A stretch of 64,000 nucleotides of DNA, taken from contig SXOO01000158.1 of the NCBI GenBank assembly GCA_005776725.1, positions 2,769 through 66,768 of the forward strand. Reading direction: 5' to 3'. Source of the DNA: Pseudomonadota bacterium (GTDB lineage: Bacteria; Myxococcota_A; UBA9042; GCA-2863065). The first letter of the stretch is position 1; each line of letters starts with the position of its first letter. The position numbers and the translations under genes were made by a program. The notes beneath the pieces are model-generated. The model did no database searches. It saw only the letters and a program-made list of their open reading frames with translations, and was not told the DNA's origin. This document shows positions 43,356 to 59,921 of the stretch, in pieces.

Positions 43356-43745
43356 TCACGCGGGCAACATCAACCCGCCGTAACGCAGTACGTTCGGGTC
43401 AGCGGTCACGAGGGTCATTCCCTCGGCGCGGGCTTGCGAGACGAGGATGCGGTCGAACGGGTCGGAGTGGAGGGGGGGCAGGTCGGCGACACCCAGGGCA
43501 TGGTGCAGCTCCACTGGGAGCGTTCGCAACCCGTGGCGCGCCAGACGCGTGCTGACGTAGGGCATCGGAGGGCAGGGGAGCGCCAACTTCCCAAGGGCAT
43601 GCTTTATCGCGATCTCCCAAGCGCTCGCCACCGACAACACAAGCGCAACGCCAGGGTCCTCGAGCTTGGCCAACGTGCTGGGGGCGAGCTTCTCCGGCGT
43701 TGCCTGCAGCCAAAGCCACACGTGAGTGTCGAGGAGAAGGGTCAA
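43356..43745 (-). CDS. vapC: PIN-domain type II toxin (VapC family)
   Basis: ORF 43356..43745. LLLDTHVWLWL...SVASAWEIAIK...DPFDRILVSQA...LVTAD. Confidence 0.85.
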   Translation of the reverse strand: MTLLLDTHVWLWLQATPEKLAPSTLAKLEDPGVALVLSVASAWEIAIKHALGKLALPCPPMPYVSTRLARHGLRTLPVELHHALGVADLPPLHSDPFDRILVSQARAEGMTLVTADPNVLRYGGLMLPA

Positions 43746-43990
43746 TCGGGCGTGTCCGAGTCAGATCCGAGGACCCAAGCGGGGGGAAGCGGTTCGTTGA
43801 AGTCAAGAGCCAGCTCCACGAGGCCAGCGTCCTGGCCGAAGCGGCGCCGAGGCGGCTCTTCGGTGTACGCGGAGAGGCGCGCTATGGGTCGGCCCGCGCG
43901 GGCGATGATCACCTCGCCTCCCGCCGCCACGGACTCCAGCAGCCTCGAGAGGTGCGTCTTCGCTTCGTGGATGTTCACCGTTGTGGGCAT
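43742..43990 (-). CDS. Phd/YefM-type antitoxin
   Basis: ORF 43742..43990; 4-nt overlap with the toxin start. VNIHEAKTHLSRLLESVAAGGEVIIARAGRPIARL. Confidence 0.8.
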   Translation of the reverse strand: MPTTVNIHEAKTHLSRLLESVAAGGEVIIARAGRPIARLSAYTEEPPRRRFGQDAGLVELALDFNEPLPPAWVLGSDSDTPD

Positions 43991-47284: not shown

Positions 47285-47932
47285 GTGATTTTCGGAAAGA
47301 GCACCCCCCGCAGGCAAGACAGCTTCCACACCGAGGCGCTCCCGCACCTCGACGCGCTGTTCAACGCCGCCACCTACCTCACCCGGGACACCCGAGAGGC
47401 CGAGGATCTCGTCCAGGAGACCTTCCTCAAGGCCTACCGATTCTGGAGCCGCTACAAGGCAGGGACCAACTGCAAGGCGTGGCTGTTCCGGATCCTGACC
47501 AACACCCACATCAACCGGAACCGGAACCGCCGGCGCGACCTCGTCTACCTCGACTCGGTAGACGGCGAAGGCGCCGCCGACGACGTGGGACTCGCAGATA
47601 CCTCGGGCTTCTATCGGGACCCCGAGGCCGACTACCTCTACGGTCTGGTCCACGACGACGTCCGTAACGCCGTCGAGGCGCTCCCCGAGGACTTCAGGGT
47701 CCCCGTGGTGCTCGTGGACCTCCAGGACTTCTCCTACAAGGAGGTGGCCGAGATCATGGAGTGTCCGATCGGCACTGTGATGAGTCGCCTCCACCGCGGG
47801 AGGAAGCTGCTTCAGAAGAAGCTGAGGGGCCGCGCGGTCGAGGCCGGGATCGTGGCCGATTCGCCCGAGACCGAACCCGTGGAGCCGGCGTCGCTCGACG
47901 CCTACAGACAGCGACGCTCGCGAAGGGACTGA
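47285..47932 (+). CDS. ECF-type RNA polymerase sigma-70 family factor
   Basis: Tail of ORF 46943..47932; GTG at 47285 proposed. Region 2: EDLVQETFLKAYRFWSRY...WLFRILTNTHINRNR. Region 4: LPEDFRVPVVLVDLQDFSYKEVAEIMECPIGTVMSRLHRGRKLL. Confidence 0.85.
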   Translation: MIFGKSTPRRQDSFHTEALPHLDALFNAATYLTRDTREAEDLVQETFLKAYRFWSRYKAGTNCKAWLFRILTNTHINRNRNRRRDLVYLDSVDGEGAADDVGLADTSGFYRDPEADYLYGLVHDDVRNAVEALPEDFRVPVVLVDLQDFSYKEVAEIMECPIGTVMSRLHRGRKLLQKKLRGRAVEAGIVADSPETEPVEPASLDAYRQRRSRRD

Positions 47933-47935
47933 GTC

Positions 47936-48736
47936 ATGGATTGTCAGAACCTACGCCGTTACCTCGATCTCTACATCGACGACGAGCTCGACCTTCGCGA
48001 CCGGGTCGACGCGGACGCGCACATCGAGGGGTGTCCCTCCTGCAAGGGCGTCGTCGGCCGCGAGCGGTCGTTCCGTCTCGCGCTTCGTGGTCAGCTCCGC
48101 CCGGTCAGCGCGCCCGACACGCTCCGGCGGGCGATCCTGGAGTCGGTCTCCGCGCCTGAGGTCGCGGCGCCGGATTGGCGTGCGGCCCTGCGGCGTGGGG
48201 GTGCCTGGTTCGCCCCGGCCGCGCTCGCCGCGGCGATCGCGCTCGTGGTCGTTTGGCCCTTCGAGCGCACGGCCGACGGCCAGGTGCAGGCCTCAGTGAT
48301 GCCCTCGAGCCCGCCGCCGCAACCGGTCGCGGCGCGCCTGCGACCCGGCATGGCCCTGGCCTCGCTCTCCAGCATGCCCGCCGACGTTGCGGGCGCCGCG
48401 TCGGACATCTCGCGCTACATGGCCGGCCGTGTGCCGTTCTTCGTGATGCCCTCCCTGGCCGAGCGCGACGGGCTGCGGCTGGTTGGCGCCCGCGAGGTCG
48501 TGGTCAACGACGCCCACGGCGCCATGCTGATCTACCGGCTGGGCGCGCAGCGGCTGTCGGTGGTGCAGACCGCGGCCACCGCGGACGACGAGAGCGCTCC
48601 CGAGCTGGTGGTCACGCGCGACGGTCGCGTCTCCACGGCCCGCTTCGTTCGCGATGGGGTGGTGCACACGGTGGTGAGCGAGCTCGACCCCGCCGCGCTC
48701 GCCCGCCTGGTCGAGTCCGCCACCCGCGTCGATTGA
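47936..48736 (+). CDS. zf-HC2 anti-sigma factor, single-pass membrane
   Basis: ORF 47936..48736, 3 nt after the sigma stop. MDCQNLRRYLDLYIDDEL...HIEGCPSCKG. TM: WFAPAALAAAIALVVVW. Confidence 0.8.
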   Translation: MDCQNLRRYLDLYIDDELDLRDRVDADAHIEGCPSCKGVVGRERSFRLALRGQLRPVSAPDTLRRAILESVSAPEVAAPDWRAALRRGGAWFAPAALAAAIALVVVWPFERTADGQVQASVMPSSPPPQPVAARLRPGMALASLSSMPADVAGAASDISRYMAGRVPFFVMPSLAERDGLRLVGAREVVVNDAHGAMLIYRLGAQRLSVVQTAATADDESAPELVVTRDGRVSTARFVRDGVVHTVVSELDPAALARLVESATRVD

Positions 48737-51700: not shown

Positions 51701-52096
51701 AGCGGGCTGCGCGGCTTGGCCGACAACTCCGTGCGAACGTTCTCGGTCGACGGCACGCCGAACCTCGTTCAGGAGGGCGGCGACACGTTGCTCATGGGCA
51801 CCCTGGAGCTGCGGGTGCCCCTGCTCGAGCGGGGCCTCGGCGGCCTGTGGCTCGGGATGTTCGTGGACTTCGGCGGGCTCGCGGAGGACGTGATCGACTT
51901 CAACGAGGAGTCCTTCCGCCTCACCGCGGGTGTGGGGCTTCGTTACCTGATCTCCGGGATCGCGGTGCGCCTCGATGTGGGCTTCAACCCGCTGCGACGG
52001 TGCGAGATCGCCACGGGCGTCTCAGAGCCCACCTGCGACGCCAACGTCCTGGAGCCAGTGAGCCAGACCCACTTCGGGCTGCTCTACACGTTCTGA
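48767..52096 (+). CDS. BamA/Omp85-family outer-membrane protein, oversized paralogue (1109 aa)
   Basis: ORF 48767..52096. Signal peptide MVALALTVALVLPAQA. POTRA-like repeats: IRRVRFVGNANLYDSDLLRRLFLRPGTVFN, IRRIDLVGDLGLPRETLEGLM. Barrel motifs YRYRLGGISGLRGL and RLTAGVGLRY. C-terminal HFGLLYTF. Confidence 0.8.
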   Translation: MVALALTVALVLPAQAEPCEGLPVGLVEVGACESPSRPCEPDTRASLVSLTDLAIGQTWLPANVARASRRLLETGYFAQVTPRCAPDATGIWAEVRFDTVLNHRIRRVRFVGNANLYDSDLLRRLFLRPGTVFNPGDPRTEVERTRQEALLARRYAKEGFGAAKVMLSAEVLSPEAVDLEVIIDEGRRRKVGGVDVVVDRAVGSQAPFGPDIRCPDFSARMIRSASKLEASEPYTERRRREAERTLGVYLRSRGVLDPSVTITASDEAERTKVSIRFERCAVLRVLERDEPQPGRSGTVERTEAEVLDALTFGESGSFDLEEADLSRAALELYYQRLGYLFADVELDYRVAPEGSRAPGVVAVITYVVSTRWPKEIRRIDLVGDLGLPRETLEGLMKTKVYDFFGTGGYLLVEQLFADLAAIQRHLVEAGYHEARFPGAPPGARELLEVRQSLRGTDDVYDYVYGDLHFRVVSPPGENVLYLEVPIAAGPASRVGTVDVTLTPGLAGPTVAELRTALRTLPGDPFSAAGVADDAAALELMWQALGHHETRVEVHCVARDVAPADGAGAERRGDGPLAARCGPDRREPCDRARCDFRTVRAGEVDLAFDVVPGPLFSVGEVFVLGLETTSEALVREALPRPGEPLSQPGIDAANRELRLLGVFADVRLDLIGLDEEPPRERPAVAVHLQEAPYQFFELRTGIQTLVARSGDEGVPELGGAVSSSLGASDALVMGGSAAVPLEIPNFLNFWGAAYRNSNLFGRAIELEVPIRYGLSIPESATDPDAWSDAFSRLVELRPTLSVARLRGTELGLRVSPFVRYDRSTREFDEFESGVATALDAALTARLRSSTTLTVSGIASGDACDVEPCTLPEMLGREAPLSPKVDLDVGLAYDRLDSPIHPTQGWAVGGRLRYVLSEGTDERGDTGDIGNFLLYELNARGVVNVRKRLIVAAFARFASALSFGGEENLPNRYRYRLGGISGLRGLADNSVRTFSVDGTPNLVQEGGDTLLMGTLELRVPLLERGLGGLWLGMFVDFGGLAEDVIDFNEESFRLTAGVGLRYLISGIAVRLDVGFNPLRRCEIATGVSEPTCDANVLEPVSQTHFGLLYTF

Positions 52097-52211
52097 AGCC
52101 TCGGGCGGGCCGCGGACCGCGCGCCGGCTCGGTGTGCGGCCGAGCGGGTTACTCGCCCGGTGGGCACACCGACGCGCCCTCATCGGGGCTGACCACGGCG
52201 GTCGCCTCGCC
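52082..52211. repeat. direct repeat copy A (left boundary of insertion)
   Basis: ctctacacgttctga (52082-52096) is identical to 54179-54193. The middle ~50 nt is about 70% similar with indels. Core 52153-52211 versus 54242-54300 is 57/59 identical (tcgcccggYgggcacaccgacgcgccctcatcggggctgaccacggcggtcgcYtcgcc). Confidence 0.9.
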
Positions 52212-53189
52212 GGAGTCGATCCTCGACAGGATCTTGGTCGCCAGCGCGTCGAAGTCGTCACGGCAACGCCGGACCGCGTCCAGGTGGGCACCGATCGCCC
52301 CATCCGCGGGTCGAAGGTGGAACATCGGCTTTTGAACATCCTGTGCCAGCGGCATGAGGCTCTGGTAGTGGCGCATCAGGCCCAGGCACCAGGGGTCGGT
52401 CTCGATCTCTGCGGGCGGCTGGCCCGACCGCACGACCGACTGGTTGTACTCGGTCGGCATCCTGCTCACCCAGCTCTGGTACGCCTTCACGGGCCGGGAC
52501 AGCCGAATTCCGGCCTGCATGACGACGTAGCCGAGCGGCCCCATCGACCCCCTGGGCAGATCCAGGTCCTCCGCCGGGTTTCGGTCCAGCCGGTCCCTCC
52601 ACCCCCGACGCCAGTCGATGAGGGTGGGCCCGAGGTTTCGGAGGCCCTGCGCAGAAAACAGGTCCGGAGCGAGAGGCGTGACCACGTAGTCGCACGCCAG
52701 CAGCGCGGCCCGGTTGATCGCCCCGAGATTGGGGCCGACGTCCATCAGCACAATTTGAGCCCGCTGGGCGGTGCCCGCTCGATTGGCGAGCCGGTGAAAC
52801 GCCGACAGCGTGCGGAAGGCAGCTTCGTCGCGGTCCAGGGCCCTCGGCCAGCTGTCGGAGAGTTTGTCCTCGAAGGTGGAGAGCCCAAGGTCTCCCGGCA
52901 CCAACGCGAGGCCGTCACGGATGGTCTCGGCATGCGGCTCGCGGATGTCACCGATACCGCGCAGGATCGGGCGTACGCAGCCGAGTACGGTTTCCGGGTG
53001 GTCGGAGCTGTCGGGCCACAGCGACTCCAGGCGCTCTTCAGAGAGGCACATCGCCGTCAGGTTGGACTGCGGGTCGAGGTCGACCATGAGCACGCGGCGG
53101 CCCTTGTCGGCCATCATGAAGGCGAGGTGGTAGACCAGCGTGGTCTTCCCGACGCCTCCCTTGTTGTTGAAGAAGGCGATCTTGATCAT
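52149..53189 (-). CDS. ParA/MinD-superfamily P-loop ATPase (346 aa) with repeat-derived C-terminal tail
   Basis: ORF 52149..53189. MIKIAFFNNKGGVGKTTLVYHLAFMMADKGRRVLMVDLDPQSNLT (deviant Walker A). The last 21 residues SGEATAVVSPDEGASVCPPGE are encoded by repeat copy A and nearly equal the C-terminus of the esterase gene (SGEATAVVSPDEGASVCPPGD). Confidence 0.85.
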   Translation of the reverse strand: MIKIAFFNNKGGVGKTTLVYHLAFMMADKGRRVLMVDLDPQSNLTAMCLSEERLESLWPDSSDHPETVLGCVRPILRGIGDIREPHAETIRDGLALVPGDLGLSTFEDKLSDSWPRALDRDEAAFRTLSAFHRLANRAGTAQRAQIVLMDVGPNLGAINRAALLACDYVVTPLAPDLFSAQGLRNLGPTLIDWRRGWRDRLDRNPAEDLDLPRGSMGPLGYVVMQAGIRLSRPVKAYQSWVSRMPTEYNQSVVRSGQPPAEIETDPWCLGLMRHYQSLMPLAQDVQKPMFHLRPADGAIGAHLDAVRRCRDDFDALATKILSRIDSGEATAVVSPDEGASVCPPGE

Positions 53190-54178
53190 TTGCGCGCCCT
53201 CACGACGACGGCGAACGAGGCAGGCTCGAACAGGAACTCAGGCGCCGGGTTTCCATTGTCGGCGCACGCCTTCCGCGCGAGGGGCACGCCGAGCCCGAAC
53301 CGTTGGACGAACCCGAGCTGGTACAGCGCCGCCGCCAGCGCAGGGTTCCGGTAATCATTCCCTCCCGGTCGCCCGAAGGTCGCTGGCGTCGCGCGGCCGA
53401 ACAGCCCCCCCGGGTTGTGGATCTCCATCCGGTCAGAGAACCAGTACCACTGCACCGGGGCGTTGCTCGTCTCGTAGTTGCGATGGATGACCGCGTTCCG
53501 GAGCAACTGCTGCATCGCGGCGATGGGGTAGTCCGGAGTCCTGGTCTCGACCGTGCCCCCGGCCACGCTGGTCGCCACACGGATGTGGGCGCTCGTGACT
53601 CGTCCATCTGGCGGAGCACCTGGGGGAGCGGTCCTGCAAGCTCCTTCCGATCGACTATCGGGCCGGTCAATTCCGTGCCGTCGACCCGGAGGAACTGCAC
53701 ATACGCGCCCTTGAGCCAGGTGGTCGGGTTGAAGCCAAGCAGGAGCAGACCGGCGACGGTAACGACGGCGTCGGGGCTGGCGAGGTGGAGGGCGGCAAGT
53801 TGCTCCGGAACACTCCTCCCGTTGCCCGGCAGGTCGTTGGCGAACGCACAGATCGCCGCTTCGACGTCGCTCTTGTTCGAGAGCGACGCCTTTCGCTCCA
53901 CGTGGTGGCTCTCCAGATCGGCGGTGAGCGCAGCGAGTTCGGGTTCGGTCAGCATGGGGCTCCGGCCATTTGATCTCCATGGTGCTTCCGGTAGCGCCTC
54001 ATCGATGCATCAAGCCATCGACTCACCGCGCCGCCACGCGGTCCACAAGAGGATGGGGATAGCGTCTCCGAACCACTGACGGAGGGTAACGGCCTGCGCC
54101 GGGGCTGTCGAGGCGGCCCTGGCAGCCTCTGGCAGCCTCTCGCGACGTCTTCTGCGTGCGACTTCTGGGCGGAAACGT
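52212..54178. mobile_element. ~2-kb inserted two-gene segment between direct repeats (remnant island; no integrase/transposase seen)
   Basis: Bounded by repeat copies A and B, which duplicate the bamA-like 3' end, the intergenic spacer and the esterase 3' end. Contents are the ParA-like gene plus a frameshifted AlbA_2/HATPase_c_4 gene. Confidence 0.4.
53186..53955 (-). pseudogene. frameshifted and internally shortened AlbA_2 / HATPase_c_4 (RecG-C-terminal-like) putative DNA-binding ATP-binding protein
   Basis: The N-terminal part is in the frame of ORF 53200..53955: MLTEPELAALTADLESHHVERKASLS...AICAFANDLPGNGRSVPEQLAAL...AYVQFLRVDGTELTGPIVDRKELAGPLPQVLRQMDE. The C-terminal part is in the frame of ORF 53186..53980: VTSAHIRVATSVAGGTVETRTPDYPIAAMQQLLRNAVIHRNYETSNAPVQWYWFSDRMEIHNPGGLFG...DYRNPALAAALYQLGFVQRFGLGVPLARKACADNGNPAPEF. 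The frames switch at about 53597-53601 (gag|gtc reads gagtc, an apparent 1-nt loss). The stop (53186) overlaps the ParA start as ATGA. Confidence 0.7.
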
Positions 54179-54300
54179 CTCTACACGTTCTGAGGTGAGC
54201 GCGGGCCGCGCGCCGGCGCGTGCACGGCCCAGCGCGGTCAGTCGCCCGGCGGGCACACCGACGCGCCCTCATCGGGGCTGACCACGGCGGTCGCTTCGCC
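54179..54300. repeat. direct repeat copy B (right boundary of insertion)
   Basis: See copy A. It covers the last ~21 codons of the esterase gene plus the downstream spacer, and a 15-nt copy of the bamA-like gene end (ctctacacgttctga). Confidence 0.9.
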
Positions 54301-55791
54301 CGACGTCCACCGGGCCAGGGCCTCGAACATCGTGGTGGGTGCTCCGCTGGCGCTGGCCGGGTCTTCGATTGTCACCTCGTAGACGTCCTCGTCGCTTCGG
54401 AGCGTCTCGTGCTTCGGGCACCACGGACCGAAGGCCCCCGGGGGCTCTGCGATCGTCTCCTCGGCGGTGCCGCCGGGCCCGCCGATTGCGGGCAGCGCCC
54501 TGAGCCCGGCCGCGACCATCTCGGCAAACAGGGCGAGATCGTAGGTGGCGCCGCCCGGCCCGGTGAGCACACCGGCCGCGAACGGATCCGAGACGAGTGA
54601 GTCGATGAGCCCCATGCGGACGAAGAACGGGGCTGTGATGTGGTTCTCCATCACGTGGGTCTCGTTCGAGCAGCGCCACGCGTCGCCGGCGTGCGCCTCG
54701 AGGCAGCTCTCGTCGCGCACGGCCCCCCAGTTCGAGGCTTCCTCGGCCGCGCCGGCTTCGAGGAAGGCGGCGCCGGTGCAGAGTCCGGCCTCATCGCAGA
54801 AGGGTGAGTTCTCGAAGCCAACCTCCTCGAGGTCGGGCCGATACGCAGAGTCGATGATGACTCGGTAGTCCGCGAGGTCGGCGTTGGAGGCTCGTAGGAG
54901 CCCCTCGACGTAGTCGGCGTTCTGGACCGTGCCAGCCCCGCCTGCCGACGCGCCAGCGAGGACCACCGCCGTGGCGTCGTCGAGGTCGGGCAGGGTGTTT
55001 GCGCCGGAACCGACGGTGCCCGCCTCGCGGCGGAGCGTGGCGAGGGTGGCCTCGAGGATTCGGCGCCCCAGGAAGTGCACCTTGTAGGTGACCGCGGCGT
55101 CCGTGTGCGGGTGGTGGCCTTCGAGCACGGCGTTGCGGTGGGTCCCGATCCAGTTGTCTGACGAGCAGTACTTCACGAAGACTTGGTTGTACTGACGGAA
55201 GGGGCTGGCGACGGACTTCGCGAAGCTCGCGGGGCGCGCGAGGATGCCCTTCCCATCGATCCCCACCTTCGGCGCCGGGGTGATCGACATCCCGAGCAGC
55301 GAGAACGCCGTCCCCACGTTGCACCAGCGGCCGGCGCAGCTGTCGCCGTTGTTACAGTTGCCCCCTCCCTGGAGCTGGATGATCCAGCGCGTGTCGTCGG
55401 CGCCCGCTGGTGCCGGGCGATAGTAGAAGACGGCCCCGGTGCCGTCGTTGCACAGCGCGTCCGGATAGACGGTGAGATCGAGGTCGTGCCTCGACAACAC
55501 CGAGTCGTCCTTCCCTTCGGCGAGCCCGCCCGCGCTGCCCTTCTTGCCGCAGTCGAGGACGTCTTGGATGAAGGGCACGGCGGCGTGCACGTCCGCGCCT
55601 GCGTCGCTGCCGGACGCATCTTCGGTGGGTGCGTCGGCGCCGTCTTCCTGGGCCTCCGCGCCGGCGTCGCCCTCGGGGACCTGGGCGTCTCTTGGCGCCG
55701 TCGACGCGTCGGGCACCGAAGTTGCCGCGGAACCCGCGCAGCTGGACGCGACGCCGAGGAGGAGCGGAACGAACAACAGCGATGGCCTCAT
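54238..55791 (-). CDS. pectin-acetylesterase/Notum-like alpha/beta hydrolase lipoprotein
   Basis: ORF 54238..55791. Lipobox LLGVASSC. LCNDGTGAVFYYRPA...WIIQLQGGGNCNNGDSCAGRW (GGGxC motif) and nucleophile context VVLAGASAGGAG. Confidence 0.65.
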   Translation of the reverse strand: MRPSLLFVPLLLGVASSCAGSAATSVPDASTAPRDAQVPEGDAGAEAQEDGADAPTEDASGSDAGADVHAAVPFIQDVLDCGKKGSAGGLAEGKDDSVLSRHDLDLTVYPDALCNDGTGAVFYYRPAPAGADDTRWIIQLQGGGNCNNGDSCAGRWCNVGTAFSLLGMSITPAPKVGIDGKGILARPASFAKSVASPFRQYNQVFVKYCSSDNWIGTHRNAVLEGHHPHTDAAVTYKVHFLGRRILEATLATLRREAGTVGSGANTLPDLDDATAVVLAGASAGGAGTVQNADYVEGLLRASNADLADYRVIIDSAYRPDLEEVGFENSPFCDEAGLCTGAAFLEAGAAEEASNWGAVRDESCLEAHAGDAWRCSNETHVMENHITAPFFVRMGLIDSLVSDPFAAGVLTGPGGATYDLALFAEMVAAGLRALPAIGGPGGTAEETIAEPPGAFGPWCPKHETLRSDEDVYEVTIEDPASASGAPTTMFEALARWTSGEATAVVSPDEGASVCPPGD

Positions 55792-56039: not shown

Positions 56040-59000
56040 ATGCCGTCTCGTTACGCCGTCCTGTTCGCCCTCGTGATGCCGCTCCGCGCCCTGGCCGACT
56101 GCTGCGCGCCCAACGCCAACCCAGGCTGCCCGGACAGCGGCGCCGTGCAGTCCTGCGTCTGCGCGAAGGACGCCTTCTGCTGCAGTACGGCGTGGGACGA
56201 GACGTGCATCGCCCTCGCCAAGAGCCAATGCAGCCTGACGTGCACGCTGCCCAAGGCCGAGACCTGCTGCCAGACGAACACCAATGCAGCGGGCTGCGCC
56301 GATCCGGTGGTGGAGAGCTGCGTCTGCGCGAGTCACCCTCCCTGCTGCACCAGCGCCTGGACGCCGGTCTGCATGCAGCTCGCGCGCAATACCTGCGGCG
56401 CCGACTGCCCCAAGGGCCAGTGTTGTCTGGGCAACATGGGCCTCGGCTGCGACGACCCGGCCGTCGAGAGCTGCGTGTGCGCTACGGACCCCTACTGCTG
56501 CACCACGAACTGGGACATCGCCTGCGCCAACGTGGCTCACGGGTGTGGCTGTGGCGGCTCGCAGGGCTGTTGTGAAGCCTCCTCCGCGTCCGGCTGCAGC
56601 GATGAAGACGTCCAGCTGTGTGTCTGTGAAGAGGATCCCGCTTGCTGCTCGGGCCAGTGGCACGCCGGCTGCGTCGCGCTCGCCGACCAGGCGTGTAACG
56701 CCCAGTGCCCGGCCGCGCTCGAGCCCTGCTGCAGCGCTCACGACTCCAAGTCGTGCGACGAGCCAGGCGTGGCCGCCGCGGTCTGTGCCAAGCGCCCCGA
56801 GTGCTGCTCGGGCCCGTGGACCCAGGAGTGCGCGGACCTCGCCGTGATCTCCGGCGACTGCCCGGCGCCGAAGGCCGACCCATGCACGCCGTCGCAGGTG
56901 GCTCGCGGCACCGTCGACCCCGAAGTCGAGGCGTGCGTGTGCGGGAAACGCGCCAGCTGCTGCACGCAGCGCTGGGACGCCGCCTGCGCCGTGCTCGCCA
57001 CGGCCTGCGGCGCTGTATGCACCACCGCCGGCTCGAACGACTGCTGCGTCGGCGACGTAGGAGCCACCGGCTGCGGGAGCTTCCCGGTCCAGGCCTGTGT
57101 CTGCGACGCGATTCCGAGCTGTTGCACCCTCGGCTGGGGTCTCACCTGCGCGTTCTACGCCGAGACGCACTGCGGCGTCCCGTGCCCGGCCACGAAGTGC
57201 TGCGAGGTGGATGGACGCCCCGGCGGCTGCGACGACGCCGAGATCACCCAGTGTGTCTGCGCCGCGGACCCCCACTGTTGCGAGGAGTGGGGGGGCGCCT
57301 GCGTGGCGCTCGCCGACGGCTGCGGCGCCGGGTGTTCGGGCCCGCCGCCGAAAGGGGCCTGCCTCGAGGCCCACTCGAGCAGCGGGTGCGCCACGGGCAC
57401 GATTGAAGGCTGTGTTTGTGCCGCGCTGCCCGAATGCTGTAGCGGCCCATGGGGCGCCGCCTGCGTGGATCGGGCGCAGGCCTGTACGCCGGACGTGTGC
57501 GGCGATGACCTCTGCACGCCTGGGGAGGGCTGCAGCGACTGCGCCGCCGACTGCGCCTGCGGGACCGGCGCGCAGTGTCTTTCAGGAGCGTGCGTGCCTC
57601 GCGACCTCTACTTCTTCGGCGGCATCCCCCTCCCTCAGGGCTGGGGTCAGCTCGGAGAGGTGGTGTTCGGCTGCGGCGCGCCCACCCTCCAGCGCTGCAC
57701 GGACCCTGCCTACCTGGATCGGCCGTGCGGGCGCGCGCTCCTCGTGGCGGCGCGCCAGGATCCGGACCATCCCTGCCACGCGTTCGCGCAGACGAACGGC
57801 AACGATGCCGCGGAGGCGATCACGGAGGCTCCGGAGCGCACGCTCCTGCCTAACCTTGCGTCCCGGCTGGTATCCCTCACTGCCCCGCCCCGGCCGCTGA
57901 CCGAGACGGCGGCGATCCCGGTTGCGCCAACGGAGCCTGCCCGGATACGGCGCGACACGCCCTGGGCGCAGGTCCCACCGAACTCGGAGGCCTTCGTCAA
58001 GGGGCTCTTCGAGGTCAACGGGGCAAGGGTCGCGTCGTGTGTCGAGGCGCTGTACGAGCGGCACTTCGACTATCACCGCTTCGAGGACGCCGCCGCCTCC
58101 GTCGAAGACGCCCGAGCGGTCTACCAGCTGGCCTACGGGCCCGTGGGCACGGCGTCCAGCATCGCTACGCGCACGATCAACGGCAGTGGGCTCCGGGCGC
58201 GCGATGGCTCCGTGTCCCGTCAGCTGGTGCTCGATCGCCGAGGGGCACGGAGCCCGTTCTTCGACATCCCGCCCACACTGTACGTGGCGCTTAGCCAGCG
58301 GCCCGATCTCAACCCGGCGGCGCCCTTCGCCAGCCTGGGCATCGGGACGACGCTGCCCCCCGGTTGGGCCGCGTGGCCGAAGCTGAGAGCCGGAATGCAG
58401 ACGGTCACCACGCGCTCATTCGTCTGGCACAGGGCGCGGAACGACGCGGCGATCGCAGCGGGTTACGACGACGTGCAGCTCCTGTCGTATGAACCCTTCA
58501 AGGAGCGGTTCCGCCAGCTCGTAGCGGCGGCTGAGGGCGCGCTTCAGCGCGCTGCGTTCCTTAACCGGCAGATCCCCAGCTTCCAGCCGCCCGTCGGGGT
58601 CGGGCCCGAGGAGCCCGAGCTCGAGGACCTGCCGGGTGCGCCCACAGCCCAGGATCTGGCCCGCGCCGACGCGCTGGCGGAGCGCCTGGTGGGGCGCGTC
58701 GTGGAGGCCCTCGTGGACGCGCGCGCACTCGGCTGCCTCGAGCCCGGGGTCACGCCATGCGACTGGTCGCCCGAGGACTTCGTGCGAGACGTTGCGTCCG
58801 CGGCGCTGCCGGGGCGCGAGCGCGATCTGCTGCGGTGCTACGAGGCCACGTCCACGTTCACGTTCTCGCAGCTGGCCAACTTCGCGCTCCCCACGCTGGG
58901 CACCAAGACCTACCCCGCGCGGGACTACCTCGCGAGCGCCTCGGCGTTGGACGATCTGACGGTCGAGAAGGAGGCCTGGGTGCGCGACGTCGTGGCGCAC

Positions 59001-59921
59001 GTGACGGGGCTTGGCCTCGCGGTGGTGGACGGCGTCCCGACCTTGGGCCAGGTCATGGATATGTTCCGGGACGCCCTGCCGGACCGGTGGTTCGGCTTCG
59101 ACACGGCGTTCCACTACGACTGGTCGCTGGTCGACGTGGCGGGCTCCGATCCGAACGAGCCGAGTGTGGACGTGCAGGCCTTCGCAGCCTTCGACGCCAC
59201 CGTTGTGGTGCTGGGCCGAACCGTGCCCCTGGCCGGGTTCCGGGCGGACTTCGGCGGGACCGTGGAACCGGCGGAGTCGTCCGTCCACGTCGAGCTTCTG
59301 GGAGCTACGCTCTACGCTGAGACCTTCAGTACGCGGGTGCCCCAGAGGTGGGACCTCGTGCGCACCCGGTACGAGGACAACGCCGAAATCCGCGCCGACG
59401 GCCCGATCTTCGTCATCGCCGGTGTCCCGATCCGTATCAGCGGAGGGATTGGGGGCTCGATCGCTTTCGACTTCGACATGACGGCGGCGGCACCGACCGC
59501 GGAGGTCCGCGCCGACCTTCGCACCACCTTCCGCCCATCCGCCGAGGTGTACGGTTTCCTTGAGGCGGCCGTGGACTACGCGATCGTCCGCGCGGGCATT
59601 CGCGGCGAGCTGGTGCTCATCGGCGCCGACATCCCGACCAACTTCTGGGCGCGCGTGAGCCTCGAGGACAACGCGTTCGTGGCGCGCGCCGCGGCCAGCT
59701 CAATCGCAACGCTGCGCAGCCTCAACGGCCGCTTCAAGTTGTTCGCCGAGATCAACCTCGGGATCACGAAGGAGCGCTACGAGAAGCGGATCGCGAGCTG
59801 GCGTGGCGTCGAGACCCGCGGGACGCTCTTCGCTACGGACTTCGAGGTGCCGCTCTTCGGGCTGATCGAGGCGTGTGCCATCCCCGGCGCGCTCGTCTGC
59901 GAGTCCAGCGATGCGCCGTAG
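56040..59921 (+). CDS. secreted 1293-aa protein: 9 x ten-Cys repeat module plus ~800-aa unassigned C-terminal region
   Basis: ORF 56040..59921. Signal peptide MPSRYAVLFALVMPLRALA/D. Repeat array at residues 20-487. CGDDLCTPGEGCSDCAADCACG motif. The remainder has no motif I recognise. Confidence 0.8.
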   Translation: MPSRYAVLFALVMPLRALADCCAPNANPGCPDSGAVQSCVCAKDAFCCSTAWDETCIALAKSQCSLTCTLPKAETCCQTNTNAAGCADPVVESCVCASHPPCCTSAWTPVCMQLARNTCGADCPKGQCCLGNMGLGCDDPAVESCVCATDPYCCTTNWDIACANVAHGCGCGGSQGCCEASSASGCSDEDVQLCVCEEDPACCSGQWHAGCVALADQACNAQCPAALEPCCSAHDSKSCDEPGVAAAVCAKRPECCSGPWTQECADLAVISGDCPAPKADPCTPSQVARGTVDPEVEACVCGKRASCCTQRWDAACAVLATACGAVCTTAGSNDCCVGDVGATGCGSFPVQACVCDAIPSCCTLGWGLTCAFYAETHCGVPCPATKCCEVDGRPGGCDDAEITQCVCAADPHCCEEWGGACVALADGCGAGCSGPPPKGACLEAHSSSGCATGTIEGCVCAALPECCSGPWGAACVDRAQACTPDVCGDDLCTPGEGCSDCAADCACGTGAQCLSGACVPRDLYFFGGIPLPQGWGQLGEVVFGCGAPTLQRCTDPAYLDRPCGRALLVAARQDPDHPCHAFAQTNGNDAAEAITEAPERTLLPNLASRLVSLTAPPRPLTETAAIPVAPTEPARIRRDTPWAQVPPNSEAFVKGLFEVNGARVASCVEALYERHFDYHRFEDAAASVEDARAVYQLAYGPVGTASSIATRTINGSGLRARDGSVSRQLVLDRRGARSPFFDIPPTLYVALSQRPDLNPAAPFASLGIGTTLPPGWAAWPKLRAGMQTVTTRSFVWHRARNDAAIAAGYDDVQLLSYEPFKERFRQLVAAAEGALQRAAFLNRQIPSFQPPVGVGPEEPELEDLPGAPTAQDLARADALAERLVGRVVEALVDARALGCLEPGVTPCDWSPEDFVRDVASAALPGRERDLLRCYEATSTFTFSQLANFALPTLGTKTYPARDYLASASALDDLTVEKEAWVRDVVAHVTGLGLAVVDGVPTLGQVMDMFRDALPDRWFGFDTAFHYDWSLVDVAGSDPNEPSVDVQAFAAFDATVVVLGRTVPLAGFRADFGGTVEPAESSVHVELLGATLYAETFSTRVPQRWDLVRTRYEDNAEIRADGPIFVIAGVPIRISGGIGGSIAFDFDMTAAAPTAEVRADLRTTFRPSAEVYGFLEAAVDYAIVRAGIRGELVLIGADIPTNFWARVSLEDNAFVARAAASSIATLRSLNGRFKLFAEINLGITKERYEKRIASWRGVETRGTLFATDFEVPLFGLIEACAIPGALVCESSDAP
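56097..57500 (+). repeat. coding tandem array, 9 copies of ~50-aa Cys-rich module (period ~150-160 nt)
   Basis: Each unit follows CC-x5-8-C-x7-8-CVC-x5-CC-x2-3-W-x3-C-x6-8-C-x1-4-C. DNA landmark tgYgtNtgYg recurs at about 56156, 56326, 56471, 56624, 56933, 57097, 57252 and 57411. Confidence 0.85.

Follow-up and report, generated by a model that had tools for sequence, protein, structure and literature searches.

The stretch of DNA analysed here (the window) comprises 64,000 nucleotides of contig SXOO01000158.1 (assembly GCA_005776725.1, positions 2,769 to 66,768), from a bacterium of the Myxococcota_A lineage. Between two convergent genes, one for an Omp85/BamA-like outer-membrane protein and the other for an esterase of the pectinacetylesterase (PAE) family, it holds an insert of two genes bracketed by imperfect direct repeats. 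One of the inserted genes encodes a ParA/Soj-like ATPase and the other, now decayed, a prokaryotic Schlafen protein, while each repeat copy is composed of the ends of the two flanking genes, both of which the insertion has left intact. The repeat itself is real. As regards its origin, we give about an even chance to the reading that the insert is a horizontally acquired two-gene cassette, of a family that never carried a recombinase, and that it arrived by homology-assisted insertion-duplication of a donor fragment. If so, the scar would be a natural record of recombinase-free, homology-assisted gene capture, a route for defence genes known mainly from laboratory insertion-duplication. For the window alone the result is modest, namely a dead defence cassette between surviving Omp85 and esterase genes.

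The insert and its flanking repeats

The window was read directly and the two repeat copies were aligned pairwise with blastn, which gave 83.6% identity with gaps at an E-value of 2e-34 (coordinates of the features are collected in Table 1). The direct repeats had already been noticed in a preliminary description of this DNA and are confirmed by the alignment, except that the right copy ends 3 nt further than had been given, at 54303. The first 15 nt, CTCTACACGTTCTGA, are identical in both copies, as described earlier, and correspond to the 3' end of the Omp85/BamA-like gene (four codons and the stop). The intergenic middle, previously put at about 70% similarity with indels, has 36 matching and 7 mismatched positions and three indels that add up to 10 gap positions, i.e. 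some 68% over all columns, and its hairpins fold no better than shuffled sequence. The remaining block of 66–68 nt, which corresponds to the last 21 codons and the stop of the minus-strand PAE esterase gene, is identical at 63 of 68 positions; the 57 identities in 59 nt reported before hold for 52153–52211, and an exact core of 44 nt is found within the block (52162–52205 = 54251–54294), with two matches in the window against none expected from 100 shuffles. Past either repeat boundary, into the Omp85 coding region or into the body of the esterase gene, there is no significant similarity, and the whole repeat is present in two copies only in the 64 kb.

Between the copies lie the ParA-like open reading frame (ORF), the broken AlbA_2/HATPase_c_4 (Schlafen) gene and a spacer of 223 nt. 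The window is contained in the European Nucleotide Archive (ENA) contig ERZ27257034 k141_27769 (206.8 kb), and the same arrangement has been assembled from three ENA samples of one study, with 2–3 single-nucleotide polymorphisms, none of them inside the repeats. In addition, in a Logan contig of the same organism from the independent run SRR8894379 (L091, 9331–9425) the Omp85 gene is followed by the left copy, and the sequence breaks off within the 44-nt core, as is typical of an assembler stopping at a repeat.

Table 1. Features of the insert and of the two genes between which it lies (positions in the window)
Feature	Position	Strand	Remarks
Omp85/BamA-like outer-membrane protein gene, 1109 aa	48767..52096	+	Pfam POTRA 1e-29, Omp85 3e-16
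Left repeat copy, 133 nt	52082..52214		real Omp85 end, intergenic GC-rich hairpin, second copy of the last 21 codons and stop of the esterase gene
ParA/Soj-like ATPase ORF, 346 aa	52149..53189	-	Pfam AAA_31 1e-27, CbiA 1e-15
Decayed prokaryotic Schlafen gene (SLFN_AlbA_2 + HATPase_c_4)	53186..53955	-	stop overlaps ParA start as ATGA
Spacer, 223 nt, from Schlafen start codon to right repeat copy	53956..54178		no similarity to any fetched locus
Right repeat copy, 125 nt	54179..54303		orphan last 15 nt of Omp85 gene, variant of intergenic hairpin, real last 21 codons and stop of the esterase gene
Pectinacetylesterase-family (PAE) esterase gene, 517 aa	54238..55791	-	Pfam PAE 6e-24

The second copy of the esterase tail, in the left repeat, is now translated as the C-terminus of the ParA-like protein. 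The esterase, which ends in ...PPGD, carries the C-terminal pattern W..G...VV.S....CP, common to 11 homologues, in which W495 and C513 are invariant and G498 nearly so. Since this motif is shared by the PAE esterase homologues, the tail is native to the esterase, and that of the ParA-like protein is therefore chimeric. Moreover, 12 relatives of the latter (~333 aa) align with it through ...KILSRID and then stop after 8–10 variable residues, where the window protein reads SGEATAVVSPDEGASVCPPGE instead, and the DNA homology to other cassettes ceases at 52212–52215, on the 3' side of the gene. The window gene has therefore lost its last 8–10 codons and reads into the duplicated esterase tail, its native part being 52215–53189 and the chimeric tail, with the stop, 52149–52214. 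Both protein ends had been given correctly in the preliminary description, and its view of the ParA tail as chimeric is supported by the ends of the relatives as well as by the native motif of the PAE esterases.

Apart from the replaced tail the ATPase gene is intact. The protein retains every invariant residue of an alignment of 13 sequences, and the deviant Walker A P-loop NNKGGVGKTT at residues 8–17 marks it as of ParA/Soj type, while against the NCBIfam partition models it scores far below all cut-offs. The nearest solved structure is PDB 3pg5 (residues 3–319, E 1e-38), and for the C-terminal half of the Schlafen protein it is 3lmm; both were deposited as uncharacterized proteins, and we take them to be structural-genomics targets from neighbouring loci of Corynebacterium diphtheriae.

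The decayed Schlafen gene, the spacer and composition

Judged from its sequence, the upstream gene belongs to a family of prokaryotic Schlafens of the HisKinase(-HTH) type, and the window copy is a pseudogene. Intact relatives are 394–397 aa long, with SLFN_AlbA_2 at 15–129 (1e-12) and HATPase_c_4 at 307–391 (2e-16) in the example L086. In the window, residues 1–47 are encoded at 53955..53815 and residues 261–397 at 53599..53189. An in-frame deletion of 423 nt (141 codons; residues 48–185 of the intact relatives), with its junction at 53823/53824, has taken out most of the Schlafen RNase domain, and a frameshift at about 53590–53599 is seen in all three ENA sample assemblies, so that the earlier statement that one gene is decaying can be given its precise lesions. 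Pfam finds HATPase_c_4 in one frame (1e-16) and does not detect SLFN_AlbA_2 in either; the E-x4-E-x-K motif is kept as ESHHVERK (ESWHVERK in L086). Because the remainder is 78–80% identical to the relatives, without any further stop, the damage is recent relative to the divergence of the cassette.

The spacer contains TGGCAGCCTC twice, as a perfect 10-nt tandem at 54120–54139, and it has no match in the regions upstream of other cassettes, in the rest of the window or in any fetched locus. Neither a sigma-70-like promoter nor an Rfam match, a tRNA, a structured RNA or an intrinsic terminator was found in the insert. A transposon or insertion sequence was considered and rejected, since no transposase or integrase domain is detected by Pfam between the repeats, no convincing terminal inverted repeats exist at 52215/54178 (the best reach 71% over 24 nt), and the duplications, 125–133 nt here and ~50–560 nt elsewhere, have no fixed length.

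As to composition, which the preliminary description had proposed to check, the insert deviates only mildly (GC 0.669 vs 0.703, 5th percentile; tetranucleotide distance 4th of 63), and its ATPase gene is host-like at third codon positions. The mild deviation fits a donor of similar composition, the closest cassettes being those of Myxococcota, and is no proof of foreign origin.

The Schlafen-ParA pair across genomes

The ParA alignment was scanned over the contigs of one genome per species, and 80 loci were retrieved and examined; they are mostly contigs of metagenome-assembled genomes (MAGs), on which ORFs were called crudely (longest ORF, greedy choice). The scan gave at least 599 confirmed matches in reference genomes (599 of the 600 stretches listed), and a protein search with ParA gave thousands, the best 120 of which are 65–88% identical, ~330 aa long and mostly metagenomic. 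The 80 loci, at 55–71% amino acid identity, are distributed over Myxococcota, Gamma- and Betaproteobacteria, Chloroflexia, Acidobacteriota, Planctomycetota, Verrucomicrobiota, Chlorobi, Spirochaetia, Latescibacterota, Nitrospirota and others, and with few exceptions the ParA gene is immediately preceded, on the same strand, by a Schlafen gene of ~395 aa. The pair is essentially absent from plasmids (best match 36% among 72,556) and from phages (best match 26%). A plasmid ParA/Soj partition system was rejected on this ground and because the partner is the Schlafen/HATPase_c_4 gene and not one of ParB type; a phage origin was rejected as well, the best phage match being so distant.

When all flanking ORFs were clustered, only the Schlafen and ParA genes proved common across loci. 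The 141 immediate neighbours represent 98 + 79 Pfam families, mostly housekeeping, including gyrA (then serC-serA), tRNA synthetases, metH, glgB, aroC, mutS, polA and a glcD-like oxidase, and no integrase, transposase or resolvase family is found in two or more of them, a count which does not extend to single-member families beyond the top 25. In five to seven loci a SNF2/DUF3883 helicase stands upstream and a DUF1156 methylase with a DUF499-like ATPase downstream (Hma-like or 'BREX-related' loci, BREX standing for bacteriophage exclusion), and in L035, L054, L058 and L071 the pair is placed between the helicase and the DUF1156 methylase. The closest ParA (88% identity, GCA_041443025.1) belongs to a BREX type 2 cluster with the order PglW, PglX, PDDEXK_4 gene, pair, PglY, PglZ, BrxD, helicase, the Schlafen gene of this pair being intact (397 aa). 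On three more Myxococcota-like contigs the pair stands by itself, surrounded by unrelated genes. The 2023 library of PADLOC has no model for the pair and gave only weak P-loop or partial matches (PDC-M28B, 8e-09 over 40 residues; Aga_SIR2-PNTD, 4e-08).

Cassettes that are 94–96% identical and stand in different contexts share only 6–22 nt before the ATG and 1–13 nt after the stop, and the homology of the window to other cassettes spans 53957 to ~52212. The conserved unit is thus the two ORFs and almost nothing else. The earlier view that the element had lost a recombinase is not borne out: in the 80 loci and several metagenome contigs the conserved unit consists of two genes only, and no recombinase family recurs among the neighbours. 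The length of the ParA protein varies from 317 to 346 aa, crude ORF calls giving apparent values of 416 and 603 aa in L007 and L038, and its last 8–10 residues are not conserved across loci. The cassette may thus often have its 3' junction within or just past the last ParA codons.

Flanking repeats at other loci

Direct repeats bracketing the pair were sought at E < 1e-14 in 62 testable loci, with control positions shifted by 3.8 or 5.2 kb. Seven of the 62 loci have them against 1 of 201 shifted positions; controls in inverted orientation or across loci gave no comparable match, the lone one below 1e-4 involving an artefactual locus (L022). At each locus the repeats consist of local sequence, different every time, with 49–366 bp per block and ~560 bp of target in L087, and no tRNA was found at the repeat-flanked insertions. 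In L025 the duplication involves the 5' end of an adenylylsulfate (APS) kinase gene (146 bp), each copy having its own start codon, and in L039 the 3' end of a PilZ gene (54 bp). In L087 it comprises 171 + 48 bp of the 3' part of the RNase D gene (rnd) together with a HAD hydrolase gene, whose second copy measures 737 bp, and in L052 the last 92 bp of the ParA gene are repeated 950 nt upstream of the Schlafen gene. The order in L087 is HAD, an unannotated minus-strand gene, rnd', HAD', pair, rnd, where rnd'-HAD' permutes the chromosomal order; such permuted junctions are present in L087 and L052 and not in the window. On the ParA side the repeat starts between -71 and +141 nt of the stop in all repeat-flanked loci but L081, and on the Schlafen side 59–1379 nt of unrelated DNA separate the gene from the repeat. 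The description of the window repeats as att-like is not supported, since the sequence and length of the flanking repeats and the gene they come from differ from locus to locus, with no tRNA involved, which argues against a dedicated att site.

In L087, a Myxococcota MAG, a 176-bp tandem duplication (6421–6596/6598–6773, 88% identical) is also found directly upstream of the Schlafen start, beside the duplicated HAD and RNase D fragment.

In the window, L025, L039 and L087 together, the codon differences between copies are 32 synonymous and 20 nonsynonymous, against some 40% synonymous expected with one neutrally decaying copy (P = 0.0014), a ratio that fits the evolution of both copies as working genes. 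For the window alone the figures are 4:1, four of the five changed codons being silent or stop-to-stop; its coding blocks are free of indels and have 5 differences in 81 nt, as against 7 in 43 aligned nt plus three indels for its intergenic block. A donor copy from a related genome is favoured over duplication in place because of this synonymous bias, the conservation of the coding blocks and the permuted junctions of L087 and L052.

Origin of the insert

The insertion into the convergent junction with duplication of the target, as put forward in the preliminary description, is supported by these results, and the question is by which route it took place. Under insertion-duplication, a DNA fragment from a related genome would have carried the cassette beside its own version of the Omp85-esterase junction; for the window this fragment would have consisted of the spacer, the Schlafen gene, a truncated ParA gene running into an esterase tail, followed by the intergenic hairpin and 15 nt from an Omp85 gene. 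Once circularised, it could have integrated through a single homologous crossover in the junction, with the help of host RecA only (Campbell-type integration), which would leave the insert between two hybrid copies of the junction. The Schlafen gene has since been inactivated by the 141-codon deletion and the frameshift, the ParA gene staying intact. In L087, a circularised HAD'-pair-rnd' and one crossover in rnd would yield the observed order, and in L052 the ParA-end copy found upstream would be a circle or tandem junction, so that insertion-duplication may be taken as the simplest common mechanism across the repeat-flanked loci. Moreover, the frequent location of the pair beside very conserved genes (gyrA, tRNA synthetases, metH, mutS, polA) would favour such transfers.

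A number of points weigh against this reading. In the collections searched, which hold no close relative of the host, neither an empty site nor a donor junction was found; hence what is said of the direction and mechanism in the window is drawn from the other loci. An esterase scan over the contigs of one genome per species found no relative; the nearest esterase homologue in a protein search is 56% identical and not syntenic; the contexts of the homologues P0122–P0125 are not syntenic with an Omp85 gene either; and an exact-protein look-up of Omp85 returned the same population only, plus the Logan contig ending in the repeat core, which matches the left copy. Some 90% of the cassette loci have no detectable flanking repeat, and the other repeat-flanked ones are mostly short-read MAG contigs. 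Among these, the repeats of L046 and L081 lie in Chlorobiaceae regions rich in other repeats and were hence discounted, that of L073 is a 191-bp non-coding stretch, and the downstream APS-kinase copy of L025 (4795–5262) matches Pfam positions 2–77 of 152 and then looks frameshifted, so both APS-kinase copies may be damaged or the contig may contain an error. The window has only five coding differences, hence a weak synonymous bias of its own, and gene conversion between the copies could mimic the conservation of the coding blocks. In composition the insert is close to the host, with a GC content at third codon positions of 0.87 in the ParA gene vs a host mean of 0.88 +/- 0.035. Finally, insertion-duplication leaves unexplained how the cassette was first placed, non-homologously, beside the junction in the donor lineage, and the sharp boundaries of the repeats suit duplication of the target in situ equally well.

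This last alternative, which we regard as unlikely on balance although it may hold for the window taken by itself, supposes that opposite-strand nicks some 130 bp apart were filled in and that a linear foreign fragment, made up of the spacer, the Schlafen gene and a truncated ParA gene, was ligated between them, for example by non-homologous end joining, the two copies diverging afterwards. It accounts well for both boundaries being sharp, with no similarity beyond them, for the lack of terminal inverted repeats and of a recombinase, for a ParA truncation that resembles an arbitrary fragment end, and for repeat lengths that vary among loci as random staggered breaks predict. Nevertheless, it has to face the excess of synonymous differences (32:20) over the expectation for one neutral copy, and a window in which the intergenic part has diverged more than the non-functional coding copies; besides, neither the rnd'-HAD' permutation of L087 nor the copy of the ParA end upstream of the Schlafen gene in L052 can arise in this way.

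Considerably less probable is the remnant of a site-specific integrative element, in which an integrase would have joined an attP with a copy of the junction to attB, the integrase and the rest being deleted later and attL and attR left behind. Imperfect direct repeats that restore the ends of the target gene are, in general, typical of integrase-borne islands, and an ortholog-like divergence of the copies would suit an attP taken from a former host. Yet there is no integrase in or beside the insert, and no recombinase family recurs at the 80 loci; the repeat-flanked loci, each with its own repeat sequence, length and target gene and with no tRNA, would need a different integrase every time; boundaries that hug the ORFs leave no room for a conserved attP; and each independent case would require everything but these two genes to have been lost. 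That there is no real insertion scar at all, the repeat being either a dispersed repetitive extragenic palindromic (REP)-like element, as the preliminary description had allowed for its core, or an artefact of metagenome assembly joining two strain variants, can hardly be believed. It is true that the window is a MEGAHIT-style metagenome contig, its record name beginning with k141, and that one independent contig breaks inside the 44-nt core. Against a dispersed element, the repeat has its two copies only in the 64 kb, and a codon-degenerate pattern of the esterase tail and core had no match in metagenome contigs of the Joint Genome Institute (JGI); against an artefact, the same structure is found in all three ENA sample assemblies, and an exact core of 44 nt is far shorter than k = 141; and against both, the repeat is composed of the ends of the two flanking genes.

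The surrounding genes

The Omp85/BamA-like protein matches the NCBIfam model of BamA at 9e-36, under the cut-off of the family. Directly upstream of this unusually long Omp85/POTRA gene (1109 aa), and co-directional with it, genes for a sigma factor of the extracytoplasmic function (ECF) type (Sigma70_r2/r4) and a zf-HC2 anti-sigma factor occupy 47285–48736 (+), which suggests a regulated operon. Some 8 kb upstream of the insert, at 43356–43990 (-), there is a PhdYeFM antitoxin/PIN toxin gene pair, so the neighbourhood holds at least one other small toxin-antitoxin module. Beyond the esterase gene, an ORF of 1293 aa (56040–59921, +) contains three to four copies of a 51–61-nt module (56145–56195, 56292–56360, 56445–56513 and 56907–56975; 64–79% DNA identity) which encodes the cysteine-rich motif ..CVCA..D..CC...W; otherwise the protein has only a faint match to DUF8252.

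Putative function and comparison with known systems

By analogy with known Schlafen defence proteins and with dyads of an RNase and ParA/Soj, we infer that the Schlafen protein may act as a toxic effector and the ParA protein as its regulator or antitoxin, the two forming a toxin-antitoxin-like defence module. This reading suits the window, because there the putative toxin gene has been destroyed while the ATPase gene survives, and the pair offers the testable hypothesis that the ParA-like ATPase controls the Schlafen RNase. Schlafen-HisKinase(-HTH) is the commonest architecture among 5,930 prokaryotic Schlafens, and some Schlafen fusions protect E. coli against phages via tRNA cleavage; a point against a defence role of the pair is that the protective constructs were DUF262- and Ig-like fusions and that the HisKinase-type Schlafens tested gave no protection (PMC13056530). 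In turn, a Schlafen RNase with a minimal histidine kinase and a winged helix-turn-helix has been described as an auxiliary effector that lies within BREX and BREX-related loci of at least 1017 taxa (PMC12839542). The ATPase partner of what is here a very widespread and highly conserved pair is mentioned neither in the main texts of these two recent surveys nor in the supplements of the second (PMC13056530, PMC12839542), and nothing specific on the exact Schlafen-ParA dyad was found in the literature searched. The nearest precedent is that of RNases (HEPN, MAE_18760 family, sometimes fused to Schlafen) in dyads with ParA/Soj, proposed to be toxin-antitoxin systems in which the ATPase would be the antitoxin (Anantharaman et al. 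2013, PMC3710099).

The Schlafen protein of the cassette resembles the prokaryotic HisKinase and HisKinase-HTH proteins in having SLFN_AlbA_2 followed by HATPase_c_4 and an N-terminal E-x4-E-x-K motif, and the BREX-embedded effectors in that relatives of the cassette occur inside BREX type 2 loci as well as helicase/DUF1156 (Hma-like) ones. Unlike in those descriptions, it is paired with a ParA/Soj-like ATPase, the stop of one gene overlapping the start of the other, and, unlike the BREX-embedded Schlafens, most copies of the dyad adjoin housekeeping genes and not defence islands. With the RNase + ParA/Soj dyads (PMC3710099) it shares adjacent, co-directional genes for a predicted RNase and a ParA/Soj ATPase, the difference being that the C-terminal module of the RNase partner is HATPase_c_4; no HEPN domain was detected by Pfam in the intact Schlafen partner, a weak test, as Pfam may not model the MAE_18760 HEPN family.

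More tentatively, and with more doubt than confidence, it may be proposed that the dyad is a distinct two-gene defence or toxin-antitoxin module, not yet described as such, which spreads without a recombinase of its own, as circularised fragments of the two ORFs and a piece of conserved host flank that enter a new host by insertion-duplication beside its homologous gene. Spread by means of host-flank homology would explain the housekeeping neighbours, the boundaries that hug the ORFs and the roughly one in ten insertions with ortholog-like flank duplications. Integron cassettes are similar in being compact, with boundaries at the ORF ends, apparently promoterless, without a recombinase of their own and found in many contexts; they differ in that they do not duplicate their target, as happened here. 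An integron cassette was also rejected for the window on other grounds: homology ends 1–13 nt after the ParA stop, where an attC site, which is longer, would not fit, and no integron integrase is found among the neighbours. Integrase-borne islands and their integrase-less derivatives, the cis-mobilizable elements, likewise have imperfect direct repeats with the ends of flanking genes and leave those genes intact, unlike which the present cassettes have no integrase nearby, no common att core, repeats ranging from ~50 to 560 bp and boundaries at the ORF ends.

Insertion-duplication of circular DNA by way of a single homologous region, and homology-facilitated illegitimate recombination in naturally transformable bacteria, are known mainly from laboratory work with Streptococcus pneumoniae and Acinetobacter. 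The insert described here shares with Campbell-type integration its position between direct copies of a homologous target, the absence of any need for a recombinase of the element and, perhaps, copies that differ as donor and recipient alleles would; in L087 a permuted junction is seen in addition. What would set it apart from laboratory insertion-duplication is that it would represent a natural and recurrent route of one cassette across phyla.

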